A DNA stretch of 64,000 bases from a virus (IMGVR_UViG_2713896909_000009:32673-96672), one strand, 5' to 3'. Counted from the stretch's first letter, positions 14,309 to 28,827 are shown. Numbers and translations are program-made. The notes: generated by a model not told the origin, from the sequence alone.

Positions 14309-14384
14309 TGGTGGCCCCTACCGGACTCGAACCGGTGACCGTGCGATTATGAGTCGCCAGCTCTAACCACTGAGCTAAAGGGCC
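14309..14384 (-). tRNA. tRNA-Ile2 (anticodon CAU, lysidine type) or tRNA-Met
   Basis: 76-nt cloverleaf on minus strand: GGCCCTT acceptor, loop CTCATAA, TTCGAGT T-loop, CCA encoded; anticodon arm matches E. coli ileX. Confidence 0.85.
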
Positions 14385-15382: not shown

Positions 15383-15796
15383 TTAACTGCTTGCTGATGG
15401 GTCATATTCGGTTAATTTAATCAACCGCGAATCAAGAGCTTTTCGATACTCAATCATGCTTTCGAGCTGATTTTGTAATTCCAACTGATTGTCCAAGCCC
15501 ATGGCGAGGAAGTTATCTGTTCCGATAAATCGAACTAGCTTATTTATGCGCTGGCACAGCTGAGCACGTTCGATAATCATTCGCTTGTGGTATTCTTCCA
15601 GACCATCAATTTTGCCCAACGGAGCTGCTATTTCATTAAATTCACGAAGTGGTATTTTTAGTTCGTTACCGAACACATCTACAACATCAATTTCAGATGC
15701 ATTTTCTTTCGAAACTTTATCGACCTGATAACTGGTGCTAACCACTAAAGAAATAACAAACTGCTCTTTCTGCATAATTACCGTTCTCGCACTCAT
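15383..15796 (-). CDS. hypothetical protein
   Basis: 137-aa ORF between the TerB-like gene and the repeat/tRNA array. Confidence 0.4.
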   Translation of the reverse strand: MSARTVIMQKEQFVISLVVSTSYQVDKVSKENASEIDVVDVFGNELKIPLREFNEIAAPLGKIDGLEEYHKRMIIERAQLCQRINKLVRFIGTDNFLAMGLDNQLELQNQLESMIEYRKALDSRLIKLTEYDPSASS

Positions 15797-15958
15797 TGGT
15801 GACAGTTTCTAAATAAATTGTGGTGGTCGGCGCTGATCTCCGACTGCGCCTCTTTTTGTTCATAACCCATAAGGCCGGTCAGTGCGCTTGATGACTGAGG
15901 CATCGATATTTACTACGCCGCCTCGTTGCCATAGGGCGGACTTGCGCGCCAGCAACAC

Positions 15959-16061
15959 GCATTCACCACAATGTTGAGAACACTGGTTGTCACGCGGCAA
16001 CGCAACATTTATTCATAGGTTGGGAAATGAACCCGTTACGCCAATGTTCTCAACGTTGTAG
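15959..16061. repeat. dispersed repeat unit 2 (variant flanks)
   Basis: GCATTCACCACAATGTTGAGAACA ... TGTTCTCAACGTTGTAG; same outer CACAA/TTGT(A/G)G ends. Confidence 0.5.
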
Positions 16062-16191
16062 TGCCGGTTACGGTTCCGGCCAGGCCTCTTCCTCAACGGG
16101 GTGTTCTCCGTACGGACTACCGTTTATTGGTCGTTCCTGCGGTTTATGTTGTGAAGCCAGATGCTTATCTTCTGGTTGCTTCAAAGAGCTG

Positions 16192-16267
16192 CACTTCATC
16201 ACAACGGTAAGAGCACTCGATGCATTTAAGCCAAGCCCCATAAGGGAGAATGCCCTTACCTGTTGTG
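16192..16267. repeat. dispersed repeat unit 3
   Basis: CACTTCATCACAACGGTAAGAG ... GCCCTTACCTGTTGTG. Confidence 0.6.
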
Positions 16268-16387
16268 TTGTGATGACCGGTGCTGATCTCCGGCTTGCGG
16301 TTATTTCAGACTCTCACGGGCGTTTAATTGCCCCGCCGGACAGCTCTTTTCCGCAATAGCTGCAATGTCTTTCGCGCATCAGCCTGC

Positions 16388-16482
16388 GCATTCATCACAA
16401 CGGTAAGGGTACTTCGTAGGGATTCGAACCCTCTGCCAAGCTCGGCGATCTCCGACGTCGCAAAATACCCTTACCTGTTGTG
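16388..16482. repeat. dispersed repeat unit 4 (abuts 3-prime end of tRNA-like gene)
   Basis: GCATTCATCACAACGGTAAGGG ... CCCTTACCTGTTGTG; interior contains AGGG-ATTCGAA-CCCT hairpin. Confidence 0.6.
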
Positions 16483-16483
16483 C

Positions 16484-16616
16484 TGGTGCCGGTTAACGGA
16501 TTCGAACCGCTGACCTCTGGCCTAACATCGAATCGTTGTCATTTGACCAGCAAGGCTGTCTACCGAAGTAGAAACGATGCTTTGGCTCTCGTGCTCTCCC
16601 ACTGAGCTAAACCGGC
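16484..16616 (-). tRNA. tRNA-like gene with about 58-nt internal insertion (identity unresolved; Thr by P1 synteny)
   Basis: Canonical 5-prime end GCCGGTT-TA-GCTCAGTGGGAGAGC and 3-prime end AGCGG-TTCGAAT-CCGTT-AACCGGC-A-CCA, but 80 nt lie between D-arm and variable loop. Confidence 0.45.
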
Positions 16617-16618
16617 AT

Positions 16619-16694
16619 TGGCGATGGTGGGTGGATTCGAACCACCGACCAGTTAGTTAACAGCCAACTGCTCTAACCGCTGAGCTACACCATC
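16619..16694 (-). tRNA. tRNA-Asn (anticodon GUU)
   Basis: 76-nt cloverleaf on minus strand: GATGGTG acceptor, anticodon loop CTGTTAA, T-loop TTCGAAT, CCA encoded. Confidence 0.85.
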
Positions 16695-16963
16695 ACTTGC
16701 CGGGTACGTCTCCGGCGAGGGCTTCCACCTCCGTATGCTTTTCGGCGCACCGCGCCCTGGCTGCAATTCGGTAACAGGGGATGCATAACCCTGGCTTCCA
16801 GCGTGATTAGCGCTTTCAGCATGACGGGATATACCCGTAAATTCGTGGAACTGTACCCAAAGTGCTGTTAAGCACCGCTGTTACGCTGAAAAGAAGACGC
16901 AACAGGAAAGGACGCTGACCAACAGATGGCCCCTTCTCGTTCATCTGGTTAATCACACCAGCG

Positions 16964-16978
16964 CCCTTACCTGTTGTG
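16964..16978. repeat. solo right-flank remnant of the repeat family
   Basis: ATCACA directly joined to CCCTTACCTGTTGTG without interior. Confidence 0.35.
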
Positions 16979-17365
16979 CCTCCCCGTTCCCTAATACACA
17001 GACGGGGACACTCTGCGGTCGATTTTTTGACGGGGGACGACTCATACCCCGTGGCGTCTGGCTTCTTAGGCCGCAGCCATCATCAGATCATCGTTTGCAT
17101 TTACTTTAATGGTCAGTTTCTAAACCGCCGCAAAGTCGCTAACCATGACGAAAACCCTGAAAAAACGCCCACCCGAAGATGGGCAAACAGGATGTAAGCT
17201 CGTTACGCATTTCGGTATTGCCACTTAGGCGTATGGTCAACCTGGCAACTCGGCGTCATGAGGGGGAAGGAGTCACTACCCCGCCATACTTGCCGCCGCG
17301 CCTGTCGCGGCTAACAGCTAAATCGCTCTATAAATCACGATTCATTGAAACCATATTACACTAAT

Positions 17366-17382
17366 GAATTTATTAGAGCAAT
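17366..17382. promoter_or_regulatory. C1 operator-like site
   Basis: gAATTTATTAGAGCAAT, about 16 of 17; positioned to control leftward transcription into the tRNA array. Confidence 0.5.
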
Positions 17383-23129: not shown

Positions 23130-23552
23130 ATGTCATTCTTTTCTACGTTAAAAACAGCTTTGTCTTTGAAGGAGAAACTTGCTGCTACTGGTGTTCTTGT
23201 TCTGATTTGCGCACTTGTTGGTGCTGGGTTTGCATGGGAACGTCATCAGCTAAAGCAAGCCATGGAGAAAATTGGCAGTCTTGATCAGGCTGTTAAGGAA
23301 CGTGATAAGTCAATAATGGATCTTAACCAGACCATTGAGACGATGAACAAAGCAGAGCAACATTTTCACAGCCAGGCAGTGAAAAATGAATCAGAACAAG
23401 CCAAGTATGCTGACAGGCAAATGGAACGAAAAGCTGAAGTTCAGAAACAACTTGTTGCGGCGGGTAATGTTCGCCAGCGCATTCCTGCTGACACTCAGCG
23501 GTTGCTCCGGGAGTCGATCAGCGAATTTAACGCCGACGCCGACAAAGATTAA
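23130..23552 (+). CDS. Rz-like inner-membrane spanin
   Basis: AGGAGG upstream, N-terminal TM helix (LVLICALVGAGFAW) followed by coiled coil; embedded lipoprotein ORF in +1 frame. Confidence 0.55.
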   Translation: MSFFSTLKTALSLKEKLAATGVLVLICALVGAGFAWERHQLKQAMEKIGSLDQAVKERDKSIMDLNQTIETMNKAEQHFHSQAVKNESEQAKYADRQMERKAEVQKQLVAAGNVRQRIPADTQRLLRESISEFNADADKD

Positions 23553-23718
23553 TCACCCTGCCCCCAAAAGTGCGTTTATGTGCAGGATGCCAGAGTTTAG
23601 CAGTGAATATTTTGATGATCTGCCAGCCTATATCCTCGATACAGAAACGATGTTGATGGGGATTAACAGGAAGAATCGCAACGTTAATGATTACAACCGC
23701 GCTATCAGCGGTAACTAA
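23467..23718 (+). CDS. Rz1-like outer-membrane lipoprotein spanin (overlapping Rz)
   Basis: Lipobox LLTLSGC then Pro-rich segment LTPTPTKINHPAPK; begins inside Rz in another frame and extends past its stop. Confidence 0.45.
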   Translation: MFASAFLLTLSGCSGSRSANLTPTPTKINHPAPKSAFMCRMPEFSSEYFDDLPAYILDTETMLMGINRKNRNVNDYNRAISGN

Positions 23719-23729
23719 AAGGGATTTTT

Positions 23730-24122
23730 ATGTCTGATAAAGTAACAGTAAAGCAAACTATCAACAAAGCGACTTCAATCTACAAAATTGAGCACATCAC
23801 AGTTGGCAAGCCAGGATCTGAACAATACCGTCATGCTTTCGAGCTTGCCGATCAGCTTGGTTTAAAACACCCGGATTGCATCGAGCATGTATTTCCGACC
23901 TATGCTGATGAGCAATGTACTCATGTTCTTACCGAAGAGGATTTTTTCAGCACTGAAGAACGAGAAGGCGTTGATCGCTGCATTGGTGTGATTTGTTCTT
24001 CGGTAAGTGATGAGTTATTCCCTAATGTGCCTGAATATGGTGGTATTGGATACCAATTCCTGTACGGGGGCGATGAGCTTAAATGCTATGAACATGGTCT
24101 TCTCATCGAAAGCGTAGAATAA
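23730..24122 (+). CDS. hypothetical protein
   Basis: 130-aa ORF directly upstream of the replication origin. Confidence 0.45.
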   Translation: MSDKVTVKQTINKATSIYKIEHITVGKPGSEQYRHAFELADQLGLKHPDCIEHVFPTYADEQCTHVLTEEDFFSTEEREGVDRCIGVICSSVSDELFPNVPEYGGIGYQFLYGGDELKCYEHGLLIESVE

Positions 24123-24159
24123 TACAGCTTCCTTCCAACCGGCTTTGTTGGCCGGTTTA

Positions 24160-24250
24160 TTCAACTTATCCACAGCATAGATCCAATAAACAGATCCAAA
24201 AGAGAACCCTAGAAGATCCAAATAAGATCCCGGATCGCTGCAGGCCGCGC
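24160..24250. promoter_or_regulatory. origin-associated DnaA box and GATC cluster
   Basis: TTATCCACA at 24164-24172 followed by five GATC sites within about 80 bp (AGATCCA-type repeats), as in the P1 oriR layout. Confidence 0.6.
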
Positions 24251-24276
24251 CATGTCTGGCCTGAAACGTGATCAAC

Positions 24277-24383
24277 ATTGACTATATGCGATTTTATGTT
24301 GACTGTACACGATTTATTGTTGACTACACGCGATTTTATGTTGACTATACGCGATATAAACATTGACTGTACGCGATTTTAAA
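24277..24383. repeat. incC-like iterons (five direct repeats, about 21-bp spacing)
   Basis: TTGACT(A/G)TAC(A/G)CGATTTTA-like units starting near 24279, 24299, 24320, 24341, 24363. Confidence 0.7.
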
Positions 24384-24457
24384 GCCTGAATATTCACAGC
24401 TGTTGATAACAGCCATCCAAATTGACGTCAGGTCGCGCCACACATGGAGAAACTACG

Positions 24458-25342
24458 ATGCCGGAAGAAAGTAAAGGCTTCCTTAGCGTTGAAGAAGTTG
24501 CAGGAAATACAGGAGAAATCCACAGCCTGAAGCCCAATAACAACAGCACTATACAACCCATTGCTTTGTTGCGTTTAGGTGTGTTTGTGCCAACCTTAAA
24601 ATCTACCAATGTGGCGCTACGTCGCGGATCGTCAGTTACAACAAACACAACGAACGCAACCGAAGAACTATCAAGCCTCAAAATTGTTGAGCAGGAAGGC
24701 TATGAGGGAATTGAAATTCATGGTCCACGCTTGGATATGGATACTGATTTTAAGGTGTGGGTGGGCATAACCTCCGCGTTGTTTGACTACGCACCTGATG
24801 ATGACGGTATAATCACCCTGCCATTCTCCGAGTTTGCCGATCGATGCGGCTATCCACGTAAGCGCCTTTCAAAGGCGTTCCGTAAAAGTATTGATGACTC
24901 TCTGACACGCATTCAGCAGACAGTTGTCAAATTCCGCTTCCCGGCGGCAAAAGGTCATCTCAATAACATTAACGTCAACTTGTTGGCATATAGCAGCCTG
25001 AATACCGAGCTTGATGTTATCGAGATCCAGCCGCAGAAACAGCTATCTGAACTTTACTATGTTGACTATAAGCGAATCCTGAAGCTGAAGATGCTGGATA
25101 AGCTCGGGCGCAAAGAGACGGCCAAGGTACTGTATACATTCTTTGAGGCTCTACCCGCCAACCCGGCACCTGTCAGCATTGAGCGCCTTAGAGCAAGGCT
25201 TAATCTCAAATCATCCGTTAGCGTGCAAAATAGCGTTATCAGAAAAGCCATGAAAGATTTGGAAGCTATTGAATATCTTAAATTTTCAGAGATAAAAAAC
25301 GGCAGGAAAATCGGCTTCCAGATCCATAAGCGCAATCCATAA
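24458..25342 (+). CDS. repA: plasmid replication initiator RepA (P1 RepA family)
   Basis: QPIALLRLGVFVP and GPRLDMDTDFK resemble P1 RepA; flanked by iterons on both sides; GGAGA 7 nt before ATG 24458. Confidence 0.8.
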   Translation: MPEESKGFLSVEEVAGNTGEIHSLKPNNNSTIQPIALLRLGVFVPTLKSTNVALRRGSSVTTNTTNATEELSSLKIVEQEGYEGIEIHGPRLDMDTDFKVWVGITSALFDYAPDDDGIITLPFSEFADRCGYPRKRLSKAFRKSIDDSLTRIQQTVVKFRFPAAKGHLNNINVNLLAYSSLNTELDVIEIQPQKQLSELYYVDYKRILKLKMLDKLGRKETAKVLYTFFEALPANPAPVSIERLRARLNLKSSVSVQNSVIRKAMKDLEAIEYLKFSEIKNGRKIGFQIHKRNP

Positions 25343-25343
25343 T

Positions 25344-25605
25344 ATTGACTATATGCGATAGCGAGAAGTTGACTATAGACGACATTCGTTGACGCTGGTG
25401 GATTTTTGCTGGCGTCAATATTCTGCAAGTCGCTATTGAGATGGCTTTTAGGGTCATTTCATCGCGTATAGTCAACGTTTCTCCCGACAATATCTTACAT
25501 AGTCGATCTTTGGTGGAGTTAAATCGATTACAGTCAACTTTTGACTGTAGTCACATCGCGCATAGTCAACTATTCACATTAACCTTCGCGCATAGTCAAC
25601 ATTTG
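25344..25605. repeat. incA-like iteron array (copy-control repeats, both orientations)
   Basis: Eight or more copies of the same TTGACTATA(G/C)CG core in direct and inverted orientation. Confidence 0.65.
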
Positions 25606-25634
25606 CGCGGTTCTCATCAAGCAGTGGTATTGAT

Positions 25635-26444
25635 ATGCAAGAAGAGAAACAACACTACCTCTACGTTCTGGTGCCGGAGAACGGAGATACTTTTAAAATC
25701 GGCATTTCATGTGGTCCATTGGCACGGTTTAAAGGGCTACAAGTGAGTCCCGATTTTGCGCTTTCACGGGTCTATCGTGGTACGCGTTTGGCAATGGTTA
25801 ATCTTGAGCGGGCTTTACACGCAACCTTTTTCCCCTGGAATGCGCCGTGGGAGAAAAGCGCCGGTGGCGGGCATGCTGAATGGTTTACACGAGAGTGTCT
25901 TGATAAGGTTTTGGCTCATATCGAATATCTAAATGATATGTGGGGAGTGATTCTCGAGCGCATTAAGTCGAATGATTTACTTCAGCGTCCAGTAGATGCT
26001 GCTCGCTCTTTCGAAAAAGAACTGGATGTTACTTCTATCGTGACTTTCAAAGATGACGCAGGAATGAGGGACGTGGCTTATGTCTCCATATCTGGCTATG
26101 ACCCGGACGCGATCCGCGCTCAATGTGAATTGCTGAAAGCAATGTTTATGCTTCGGACTAAATATCCCTGGGAGACAGGGCGGGTGTGCTTCCCTATGGA
26201 AGAGTTAACCGCCACCATTGATTCCCAGCTTTACCACGATAATCCAGAGAAGTTTTTTAGCCTTTTAACCGGTAATGGGCTTAACTGTGTGTCCGGGCTG
26301 GGGCGAAGTAGAATCCAACATGCCTCGCTCTTCGGTCCCTTCTTTTACGATCGACACGGGTACTTTGAGGCTGAACTTCCGGCGCTTACGCGTGCTATAG
26401 ATACTATCGATTTCGAACGATTATTCGCTGCTCTTAGCAAATAA
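25635..26444 (+). CDS. T5orf172-domain (GIY-YIG-like) protein with uncharacterised C-terminal domain
   Basis: YLYVLVPENGDTFKIGIS ... RFKGL ... LERALHATF ... GHAEWF fits the T5orf172 pattern; sits between incA and the parA promoter. Confidence 0.65.
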   Translation: MQEEKQHYLYVLVPENGDTFKIGISCGPLARFKGLQVSPDFALSRVYRGTRLAMVNLERALHATFFPWNAPWEKSAGGGHAEWFTRECLDKVLAHIEYLNDMWGVILERIKSNDLLQRPVDAARSFEKELDVTSIVTFKDDAGMRDVAYVSISGYDPDAIRAQCELLKAMFMLRTKYPWETGRVCFPMEELTATIDSQLYHDNPEKFFSLLTGNGLNCVSGLGRSRIQHASLFGPFFYDRHGYFEAELPALTRAIDTIDFERLFAALSK

Positions 26445-26612
26445 CACTGATGCCCCTGAACGGGGCTTTTTTGTGCCCTCCTTGCAACGCTCAATCGTGC
26501 AAAATGAACTAAACATGCAGAGAATACTATGTACAAGCATCTACGCATACATTATTATTTTATGTAGCATTTTTAATTAAATTCAAAAATACAGCATAAA
26601 GGATGACTTTCG

Positions 26613-27809
26613 ATGAGTGATTCCAGCCAGCTTCACAAGGTTGCTCAAAGAGCAAACAGAATGCTCAATGTTCTGACTGAACAAGTACAGTTGCAAAAGG
26701 ATGAGCTACACGCGAACGAGTTTTACCAGGTCTATGCGAAAGCGGCACTGGCAAAATTGCCTCTACTGACTCGAGCGAACGTTGACTATGCCGTAAGTGA
26801 AATGGAAGAAAAGGGTTATGTTTTCGATAAACGCCCTGCTGGCTCTTCAATGAAATATGCGATGTCAATTCAGAACATCATTGACATATATGAACATCGC
26901 GGAGTGCCAAAATACCGGGATCGCTACAGCGAAGCGTATGTGATTTTCATCTCCAATCTTAAAGGCGGTGTGTCAAAAACTGTATCGACGGTTTCTCTGG
27001 CGCATGCAATGCGTGCTCACCCTCATCTTCTGATGGAAGATTTAAGGATTCTGGTTATTGACCTTGATCCGCAATCTTCAGCAACGATGTTTTTAAGCCA
27101 TAAACACTCTATTGGTATCGTAAACGCAACATCTGCACAGGCTATGTTGCAGAATGTAAGCCGTGAAGAGCTGTTAGAGGAGTTTATTGTTCCTTCTGTT
27201 GTACCTGGGGTTGACGTTATGCCTGCGTCGATTGACGATGCCTTTATTGCATCCGATTGGAGAGAGCTATGCAATGAGCATCTACCGGGTCAGAACATCC
27301 ATGCAGTCCTGAAAGAAAATGTGATTGATAAGCTCAAGAGCGATTATGACTTTATCCTTGTTGATAGTGGTCCTCACCTTGACGCCTTCCTGAAAAATGC
27401 TTTGGCCTCGGCCAATATACTGTTTACACCTCTGCCACCAGCAACGGTCGATTTCCACTCATCGCTTAAATACGTTGCCCGCCTTCCTGAGTTGGTGAAA
27501 CTCATTTCGGATGAAGGCTGCGAGTGCCAGCTTGCGACTAACATTGGTTTTATGTCCAAGTTGAGTAACAAGGCAGACCATAAGTATTGCCATAGCCTGG
27601 CGAAAGAAGTTTTCGGTGGGGATATGCTCGATGTCGTCCTCCCTCGCCTTGATGGTTTCGAACGCTGCGGTGAGTCCTTTGACACTGTTATTTCTGCTAA
27701 TCCGGCAACGTATGTTGGTAGTGCTGACGCACTGAAGAACGCGCGCATCGCCGCTGAAGATTTTGCAAAAGCAGTTTTTGACCGTATTGAATTTATCAGA
27801 TCTAACTAA
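26613..27809 (+). CDS. parA: plasmid partition ATPase ParA (P1 type)
   Basis: 398 aa; deviant Walker A KGGVSKT; N-terminal HTH extension; matches P1 ParA as I recall it. Confidence 0.95.
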   Translation: MSDSSQLHKVAQRANRMLNVLTEQVQLQKDELHANEFYQVYAKAALAKLPLLTRANVDYAVSEMEEKGYVFDKRPAGSSMKYAMSIQNIIDIYEHRGVPKYRDRYSEAYVIFISNLKGGVSKTVSTVSLAHAMRAHPHLLMEDLRILVIDLDPQSSATMFLSHKHSIGIVNATSAQAMLQNVSREELLEEFIVPSVVPGVDVMPASIDDAFIASDWRELCNEHLPGQNIHAVLKENVIDKLKSDYDFILVDSGPHLDAFLKNALASANILFTPLPPATVDFHSSLKYVARLPELVKLISDEGCECQLATNIGFMSKLSNKADHKYCHSLAKEVFGGDMLDVVLPRLDGFERCGESFDTVISANPATYVGSADALKNARIAAEDFAKAVFDRIEFIRSN

Positions 27810-27825
27810 GGAGTAAGAAAACGCC

Positions 27826-28827
27826 ATGTCAAAGAAAAACAGACCAACAATTGGGCGAACCCTTAATCCTTCAGTATTAAGCGCATTTGATAGTTCCTCT
27901 ACCTCTGGTGATCGGGTTGAGCAGGTATTCAAGCTATCAACAGGTCTCCAGGCCACATTCATTGAGGAGGTAATCCCTCCGAACCGGGTAGAAGGTGATA
28001 CCTTTGTTGATCAGCATAACAACGGACGTGATCAGGCAGCTCTTACACCAAAATCATTAAAAAGCATCAGAAGCACCATTAAGCATCAGCAATTTTATCC
28101 AGCAATAGGTGTTAGACGGGCTACAGGAAAAATTGAAATTTTGGATGGTTCCCGGCGTCGAGCTTCGGCCATCTTAGAGCACGTTGGATTGCGGGTTTTA
28201 GTCACGGATCAGGATATCAGCGTTCAGGAAGCGCAAAATTTAGCGAAAGACCTTCAGACAGCATTGCAGCATAGCATTCGAGAAATAGGTCTGCGTTTGA
28301 TGCGAATGAAAAATGATGGAATGAGTCAGAAGGATATTGCCGCTAAAGAAGGTCTATCTCAGGCGAAGGTCACGCGTGCTCTTCAGGCTGCGAGCGCTCC
28401 GGAAGAATTAGTCGCTCTTTTCCCTGTGCAGTCGGAATTAACCTTTTCGGACTACAAAACGCTTTGCGCTGTTGGCGATGAAATGGGGAATAAGGATTTA
28501 GAGTTTGATCAGCTTATTCAAAACATATCCCAGGAAATAAACGACATCTTATCCATTGAAGAAATGGCCGAAGATGAAGTGAAAAATAAAATCCTTCGCC
28601 TGATAACAAAGGAAGCCTCGTTACTCACGGATAAAGGCTCTAAAGATAAGTCTGTAGTTACTGAATTATGGAAATTTGAGGATAAAGATCGTTTCGCAAG
28701 GAAGCGTGTGAAAGGCCGTACCTTTTCCTATGAGTTTAATCGTCTCTCCAAAGAGTTACAGGAAGAACTTGACAGGATGATTGGGCATATCCTTAGAAAG
28801 AGCCTCGATAAAAAGCCGAAGCCTTAA
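27826..28827 (+). CDS. parB: plasmid partition protein ParB (P1 type)
   Basis: 333 aa; ParB-box region GKIEILDGSRRRAS; matches P1 ParB as I recall it. Confidence 0.95.
   Translation: MSKKNRPTIGRTLNPSVLSAFDSSSTSGDRVEQVFKLSTGLQATFIEEVIPPNRVEGDTFVDQHNNGRDQAALTPKSLKSIRSTIKHQQFYPAIGVRRATGKIEILDGSRRRASAILEHVGLRVLVTDQDISVQEAQNLAKDLQTALQHSIREIGLRLMRMKNDGMSQKDIAAKEGLSQAKVTRALQAASAPEELVALFPVQSELTFSDYKTLCAVGDEMGNKDLEFDQLIQNISQEINDILSIEEMAEDEVKNKILRLITKEASLLTDKGSKDKSVVTELWKFEDKDRFARKRVKGRTFSYEFNRLSKELQEELDRMIGHILRKSLDKKPKP

Follow-up and report, generated by a model that had tools for sequence, protein, structure and literature searches.

What is a nuclease-like gene doing between the replication and the partition genes of a P1-like phage-plasmid, at a junction where P1 itself has none? 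The question is raised by a stretch of viral DNA of 64,000 nucleotides (hereafter the window, numbered from its first nucleotide), in which an earlier note had placed a gene of 269 codons between the incA-like iterons and parA. This open reading frame was verified at 25635–26444 on the plus strand, where it runs from ATG to TAA and encodes WP_059242015.1, a predicted T5orf172/GIY-YIG nuclease. Among P1-like phage-plasmids, the window falls in the SJ46/RCS47/JL22 group (PlasmidFinder replicon type "p0111"), and across the gene region it is co-linear and identical with the Escherichia albertii plasmid pEA22_2 (NZ_CP117630.1), on which RefSeq names the protein "GIY-YIG nuclease family protein". 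The gene is already in the RefSeq annotation and the domain family of its product (T5orf172) is already known; the literature mentions it only in passing, as "unknown gp57". PLSDB/MOB-suite assigns pEA22_2 to the replicon type 'IncHI1B', while the p0111/RepFIB-like repA is the sole initiator seen in the window region that matches it; this assignment may be a typing artefact, or may reflect a second replicon beyond the window.

The gene within its replicon cassette

In P1 (NC_005856), the interval between repA and parA consists of nine incA iterons, a spacer of ∼190 nt and the promoter Ppar, with no coding sequence, much as the earlier note had described. That note took the gene for a single-gene insertion into a P1-type junction, and this part of it does not hold. 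In an alignment to P1, homology spans upfA and its terminator. The ∼100 nt from 24161 still show homology to the P1 oriR, but carry fixed differences between p0111 and IncY elements, and similarity is gone entirely from the first iteron on. It comes back abruptly at 26510, 20 nt ahead of the −35 of Ppar (right boundary 26503–26510), and not one replicon-type-linked SNP lies beyond this position. Given these limits, at 24161 and 26510, the gene is the last gene of an alternative p0111 cassette, which takes the place of the P1 IncY oriR-repA-incA module.

The cassette (24161–26510, 2.35 kb) opens with the left half of the origin (24161–24265, plus strand), which holds a DnaA box, TTATCCACA, at 24166 and six GATC sites. 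Five direct, incC-like origin iterons follow at 24278–24376 (plus strand, consensus TTGACTATACGCGA, 21–22 nt spacing), and then repA (24458–25342, plus strand), which encodes a p0111/RepFIB-like initiator of the Rep3 family with 294 amino acids. Downstream of repA, incA-like iterons extend over 25345–25599, two in the plus orientation (25345–25382) and four inverted (25462–25475, 25524–25537, 25556–25569 and 25586–25599), the last ending 35 nt ahead of the ATG of the T5orf172 gene. A Shine-Dalgarno-like motif, GTGGT, stands 6 nt 5′ of this ATG, and both the motif and the start position are kept in the sole distant homologue, protein P0004 of the divergent P1-like contig L003. Behind the gene, an intrinsic terminator (26452–26475, plus strand), made of a GCCCC-TGAAC-GGGGC stem-loop at 26452–26466 and the T-run TTTTTTGTGC, sets it apart from the partition operon, and the cassette ends 66 nt from the end of the gene. 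Ppar (26530–26558, plus strand), common to P1, and parA-parB (26613–28827, plus strand), whose products are 99.7% and 96% identical to those of P1, lie outside the cassette. Other open reading frames neighbouring the gene are spurious overlaps only, and no known RNA family was found in 23500–27500. A near-perfect iteron copy, TTGACTATAAGCGA (one mismatch), is also present within the repA coding sequence, at 25062–25075, and has a counterpart in L003 (7615–7628).

The p0111 and the P1 IncY modules are therefore alike in plan: both lie between upfA and Ppar, and both possess a DnaA box/GATC region, five origin iterons, a Rep3-type RepA and downstream control iterons. They differ in the sequence of the iterons, in RepA, for which identity is just 40%, and in what follows incA, namely no gene in P1 IncY and the T5orf172 gene in p0111. 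Among the IncY relatives (L048–L112), the repA-parA spacer measures 411 nt in 29 loci and 560 nt, the length of the P1 reference, in 21; the difference of ∼149 nt presumably lies in the incA iteron array. A homology between the P1 incA-Ppar spacer and the region 3′ of the gene in L003 was hinted at by a first alignment, but was not upheld.

The expression context can be described in part. There is no C1 operator near the gene, the closest operator-like site being 3.7 kb off, and on the plus strand no terminator-like site stands between repA and the gene. A consensus promoter scan of the plus strand from repA to the gene found nothing, but is uninformative because it also misses PrepA; manual inspection of the same interval gave weak candidates only. 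Since there is no nearby C1 operator and no intervening terminator, and since the gene is followed by its own strong terminator, I infer that it is probably expressed weakly in the plasmid state, through transcripts that read on from the autoregulated repA. Over the whole window, the P1 C1-operator consensus (at most 3 mismatches) has ten matches, against 0.27 expected by chance (1009, 3101, 3150, 5867, 6774, 17355, 17366, 21911, 37984 and 40133), and none of the ten is near the replicon cassette. The window also carries tRNA-Met(CAT) at 14309–14384 and tRNA-Asn(GTT) at 16619–16694, both on the minus strand, and an interval (15775–17373) for which the plasmid gene table lists no coding sequence.

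Two domains of the encoded protein

The T5orf172 pattern that had been proposed for the N-terminus is borne out by profile search: residues 8–85 match Pfam PF10544 over profile positions 2–87 of 101, with an E-value of 1.4e-5 and 26 bits, above the curated gathering cut-off of 20. The protein also matches phrog_681, annotated 'endonuclease' (E 1.6e-7), and PHROG 2876, a family with unknown function. The nuclease domain, spanning residues ∼1–100, contains the motifs YLYV and KIG as well as Arg31, Glu58, His62 and Glu82, and it adopts the GIY-YIG alpha/beta fold in the structural model. When this model is searched against BFVD with Foldseek, the best matches are phage T5orf172 and homing-endonuclease proteins, ICP1 ORF88 (Odn) among them. 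Odn, also named gp88, is a T5orf172 nuclease that cuts the origin iterons of a satellite by means of a RepA-derived DNA-binding domain (Barth et al., 2021, PMC8263062). In an alignment of the two nuclease domains, YLYV, K(I/V)G and Arg31 superpose, with Arg31 matching the catalytic Arg of Odn, and Glu58 aligns with Glu180, the residue whose mutation in Odn (E180A) abolishes cleavage (PMC8263062). Both Arg31 and Glu58 are unchanged across 41 alleles and in the L003 homologue. The catalytic Arg and Glu of T5orf172/GIY-YIG nucleases are thus retained, which argues for cleavage, and the gene product is predicted to be a site-specific DNA endonuclease of the GIY-YIG superfamily, in its T5orf172 branch.

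The remainder of the protein (residues ∼101–269) belongs to no recognised family, as the earlier note had it for the last 170 residues: this region has no Pfam match even at E ≤ 10, and no sequence match in the PDB. An exhaustive HMM search of 1.84e9 representative sequences with a profile of these ∼170 residues returned solely copies and fragments of the same gene and its homologue. In this putative targeting region, no DNA-binding motif is recognised, CxxC motifs are absent, and so are zinc-finger modules of the CapR, DUF723 or DUF4397 kind.

Structure prediction for this domain starts from few sequences. The full-length AlphaFold model was built from three; its confidence is medium to low (mean pLDDT 63, ∼80 across residues 150–215), and a model of the C-terminus by itself failed (pLDDT 39) and was set aside. 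Deeper homologue sampling (5.8e9 proteins by word-indexed search, 1.84e9 by HMM) gave just the same gene, its fragments and one homologue with 43% identity. In the full-length model (mean pLDDT 63), residues 183–231 show a winged-helix-like beta-alpha-alpha-alpha-beta-beta pattern. Top-ranked in a Foldseek search of the PDB are RctB, the MSBI1 WH1 domain and RepE54, all with E-values of at least 0.048, and rank 11 in BFVD, below the nuclease matches, is a COG5527 plasmid replication initiation protein (E 0.011). Structural matches to RepE, RepA WH1, RctB, Pi and COG5527 are repeated, but sub-significant. On the full-length model, the C-terminus may resemble the winged-helix domains of Rep initiators, a likeness that recurs across methods, with every score sub-significant, and that I treat as a weak lead only. 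A recent chimera with a RepA DNA-binding domain, in the style of Odn, was considered and rejected at the sequence level, as hhalign gives the C-terminus a probability of 0.1% against an alignment of the p0111, L003 and P1 RepA sequences.

Distribution, recombination and decay

A word-indexed search of 5.8e9 clustered proteins found this gene, truncated forms of it, and a single homologue with 43% identity, P0004. By tblastn, 401 PLSDB plasmids carry the gene, all with at least 90% identity, and within the phage collection it is confined to p0111-type P1-like phages. It is present in 412 of 5426 complete E. coli genomes, where seven of its places are chromosomal, presumably representing integrated P1-like elements or cointegrates. 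Each of the 43 IMG/VR loci in which the protein was found also has the p0111 repA; PLSDB holds ∼395 records with the p0111 repA region (at least 95% identity), against the 401 with the gene, and ∼144 with an intact IncY junction. None of the 55 IncY loci possesses it. Among the 67 loci found with P1 RepA, it is absent from the IncY (100% RepA identity), IncY-like (67–86%) and third-type (41–45%) replicons, and the repA-parA spacers of these gene-less loci span 349–561 nt. Nor does such a gene follow the distantly related RepB-family replicon of the Klebsiella plasmids of ∼112 kb. The comparison with related plasmids that had been suggested for this junction hence gives a clear pattern, with the gene going with the p0111-type repA and absent from IncY and other replicon types; across IMG/VR loci and PLSDB, I found neither an IncY element with the gene nor a p0111 cassette cleanly lacking it. 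The third type of RepA (IMG/VR loci L113 and L114, match 4001–4873) is 41% identical to P1 RepA and 45% to p0111 RepA, and has a spacer of 427 nt to parA that contains no T5orf172 gene. A further E. coli plasmid protein of 197 amino acids (P0005, ABN773_26325) joins an unrelated N-terminus of 79 residues to residues ∼106–223 of the T5orf172 protein, a chimeric sequence that indicates a rearranged allele.

The homologue P0004 is encoded on L003, a divergent contig of 95.7 kb on which the order of features is the same as in the window: iterons sharing the consensus, repA, inverted iterons, the T5orf172 gene, and Ppar-parA-parB. RepA is 84% identical between L003 and the window, and the neighbours 84–89%, against 43% for the T5orf172 protein. 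In PLSDB, L003 has as its nearest relative a Salmonella plasmid (L116), whose RepA is of another type and, at 286 amino acids, as long as that of P1. This plasmid has iterons after repA that resemble the P1 incA repeats, and no gene ahead of parA; the heterology between L003 and L116 likewise stops just upstream of Ppar. Co-occurrence in two clades, together with absence elsewhere, makes the association of the gene with the p0111 initiator ancient and exclusive.

Both flanks of the cassette, by contrast, are freely exchanged between replicon types by recombination. I projected 97 loci onto the window and computed Fst between replicon types in sliding windows of 200 nt: it is ∼0 in every one of these in both flanks, except that holding the left end of the cassette. 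An apparent linkage of the left flank to replicon type was rejected on this basis, as the signal was traced to its last ∼100 nt, which lie within the cassette. The same parA and parB alleles are seen with both replicon types. An Fst of ∼0 across the flanks matches published replicon-type switches, 17 of which were inferred on the core-genome tree of Salmonella P1-like elements (PMC11165635).

Constraint on the T5orf172 gene within the p0111 lineage is much weaker than on the genes beside it. Its pairwise dN/dS is 0.33, its missense changes amount to 0.45 of the neutral expectation, and it shows 3 nonsense variants where 3.7 would be expected if neutral. The corresponding values are 0.02, 0.03 and 0 (4.7 expected) for repA, 0.002, 0.01 and 0 (7.7 expected) for parA, and 0.05, 0.10 and 0 (12.4 expected) for parB. 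Broken alleles include S112* in 5 loci, W68* in 1 locus, and Q228* in Salmonella phage SJ46, type phage of Punavirus SJ46 (L118 301–984; KU760857.1 4324–5007), in which the annotated coding sequence has 684 nt instead of 810 and lacks the last 42 amino acids. In one further locus (L044, IMGVR_UViG_2645727563_000002, 3295–5057), an IS200/IS605-type element replaces nt 295–523 of the gene; this element carries a TnpB-like ORF of 389 amino acids and a Y1 TnpA-like ORF of 141. The protein database also holds large clusters of truncated versions. Overall, about 80% of gene copies are intact and ∼15–20% are broken, and since broken alleles occur in full-size elements, SJ46 included, maintenance of the element does not depend on the gene. 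Over the longer term, between the window and L003, synonymous sites are saturated, and both reading frames are intact with catalytic residues kept; dN is 0.53 for the gene (0.30 in the N-terminal domain, 0.71 in the C-terminal domain), 0.13 for repA and 0.07 for parA.

Possible roles and known systems

The reading I favour, at slightly less than an even chance, is that of a homing-endonuclease-like T5orf172 nuclease, which rides on the p0111 replicon cassette and possibly drives it. A free-standing homing endonuclease gene should carry neighbouring markers along by co-conversion, and should alternate between phases of invasion and of decay. The protein would have the classical layout of GIY-YIG homing endonucleases, with the catalytic domain at the N-terminus and a putative, lineage-specific targeting domain behind it. 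As for such genes, this one stands at a boundary of genetic exchange, beside genes that are essential for maintenance, 66 nt from the right limit of the cassette and with Fst ∼0 on both flanks, and the record of decay is there, in the dN/dS of 0.33, the 3 nonsense variants against 3.7, the IS insertion and the Q228* of SJ46. A gene that goes through a homing-endonuclease cycle, or a conflict gene that is useful only under some conditions, would be expected to leave just such a record, being kept over the long term while decaying over the short term. The nuclease would thereby act selfishly or competitively: on meeting a cassette-less relative such as an IncY P1, it would cut the rival DNA, and repair on the p0111 template through the freely recombining flanks would copy the whole cassette, or the rival would simply be lost. 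With targets exhausted, selection on the nuclease would relax and decay would set in, as in the homing-endonuclease cycle. However, the gene is found solely alongside the p0111-type repA and iterons. It is never seen mobile apart from repA, and thus lacks one defining feature of homing endonuclease genes, that of being the mobile unit by itself; the homing unit, if any, is the whole cassette. The strict linkage could be mere physical hitch-hiking within a non-homologous block, and cassette switching needs no nuclease, because recombination is free across P1-like genomes, with Fst ∼0 everywhere.

The gene could also be a functionless remnant, persisting only through its position inside the non-recombining heterologous block. 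Nonsense variants near the neutral expectation and the disruption of about 15–20% of copies agree with this, but missense changes at only 0.45 of neutral, about 80% of copies intact, and full-length reading frames with catalytic residues kept in both lineages despite saturated synonymous sites make it very unlikely. It is similarly improbable that the protein has been domesticated to serve the p0111 replicon as a DNA-binding accessory, possibly one that does not cleave, modulating copy number or handcuffing or acting as a regulator in the manner of CapR, the precedent for which is found among proteins derived from homing endonuclease genes (PMC8096241; PMC10448857). The strict and ancient linkage to the p0111-type repA and iterons in two clades, the last iteron 35 nt from the start codon, and a likely co-transcription with repA would all suit an accessory. 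Yet its catalytic residues are retained, its dN/dS is 10–100 times that of repA and parA, and nonsense, IS-disrupted and truncated alleles in full-size elements, including SJ46, mark it as dispensable.

The structural lead of the C-terminus suggests a more specific target. In such a case, the protein would be an origin-directed nuclease like Odn, whose diverged Rep winged helix (WH1-like) recognises the iterons of a rival, for instance IncY P1, and cleaves its origin, and competitors with the same par system would as a consequence be eliminated or converted. Odn is an experimental precedent (PMC8263062), the gene directly adjoins the iterons of a Rep3 replicon, the model has its winged-helix pattern at residues 183–231, and after the GIY-YIG proteins its structural matches are iteron-binding initiators (RctB, MSBI1 WH1, RepE54, COG5527). 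Nevertheless, winged-helix folds are ubiquitous, the C-terminus modelled by itself reaches a pLDDT of 39, it gives no Pfam or PDB sequence signal, and it has no sequence similarity to the p0111, L003 or P1 RepA (0.1% by hhalign); I therefore regard both the origin-directed nuclease and the proposed fate of competitors as unlikely. A 'homing replicon', in which the Rep-like winged-helix nuclease would cut the origin or iterons of an IncY rival, in a P1-like genome that is co-resident or co-infecting, and repair through the upfA and par flanks would convert it to p0111, is slightly less likely still; if true, it would explain both why replicon types are switched so often and why p0111 elements outnumber IncY elements. 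The earlier note had thought instead of defence, exclusion or addiction. A single-gene nuclease of this kind, carried as phage-plasmid cargo and protecting the lysogen from unrelated phages or plasmids, would fit with nuclease domains being common in defence, with fast evolution between lineages (43% identity against 84–89% for neighbours) and patchy loss, both typical of conflict genes, and with the lack of a nearby C1 operator, which makes expression in the lysogen possible. But no PADLOC-DB v2 family matches at E ≤ 1, PHROG 2876 is of unknown function, there are no partner genes, nonsense alleles stand at the neutral expectation, and the position is fixed inside the replicon cassette rather than in a P1 variable or defence hotspot. 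The family is moreover limited to two P1-like lineages among 5.8e9 proteins, unlike typical defence genes, which spread horizontally. Relaxed constraint and recurrent nonsense or IS-disrupted alleles in complete elements also tell against the note's proposal, and the role of a toxin-antitoxin or addiction module does not suit a single gene, between iterons and its own terminator, for which loss-of-function alleles are common. Defence is on balance an unlikely reading, although a role in exclusion or competition against rival replicons or genomes is possible, and is close to the homing-endonuclease-like reading that I prefer.

P1-like phage-plasmids are major carriers of resistance and virulence genes, and the literature documents frequent switching from IncY to p0111, without a mechanism. 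A nuclease at the edge of one cassette is a candidate driver, or at least a beneficiary, of this replicon switching. If rival origins are its targets, the principle established for Odn would extend from the conflict between phage and satellite to competition between plasmid replicons; if not, this is simply one more decaying homing-endonuclease-like gene.

Several known systems bear on this choice. T5orf172 homing endonuclease genes of phages, including those of ICP1 and T5-like phages, share with the present gene the nuclease domain (PF10544) and a modular design of nuclease and variable targeting region. They adjoin essential genes at the boundaries of genetic exchange (Barth, Dunham & Seed, 2023, PMC10448857), as the gene does here. 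In contrast, the nuclease domain is here N-terminal, the orphan targeting region is without CapR, DUF723 or DUF4397 modules, and the host is the plasmid-replicon cassette of a temperate phage-plasmid, in which the gene is never a separate mobile unit. In T4, I-TevI and the Seg proteins possess an N-terminal GIY-YIG catalytic domain of ∼95 amino acids and a C-terminal DNA-binding region, and their genes are intergenic and free-standing. The present gene resembles these in its N-terminal catalytic domain, C-terminal region and intergenic, free-standing position, but its family is T5orf172 rather than canonical GIY-YIG, homing is here putative, and none of the linker, zinc-finger and HTH modules of I-TevI was detected in the protein. 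With Odn it shares the T5orf172 domain with aligned catalytic Arg and Glu, and a theme of replicon modules, iterons and module swapping, to which a Rep-like targeting domain is a possible addition, as a structural lead only. However, the DNA-binding domain of Odn is N-terminal and clearly related in sequence to the RepA_N of PLE, whereas the C-terminus here has no sequence similarity to RepA; and Odn is encoded by a phage and directed against a satellite, whereas the gene described here lies within the replicon cassette itself. To this picture the present analysis adds the exact boundaries of the cassette, the exclusive and ancient linkage of the gene to the p0111-type RepA, the orphan C-terminal domain, a quantified relaxation of selection with recurrent loss, and the parallels to Odn and homing endonucleases, with their weak Rep-like lead.
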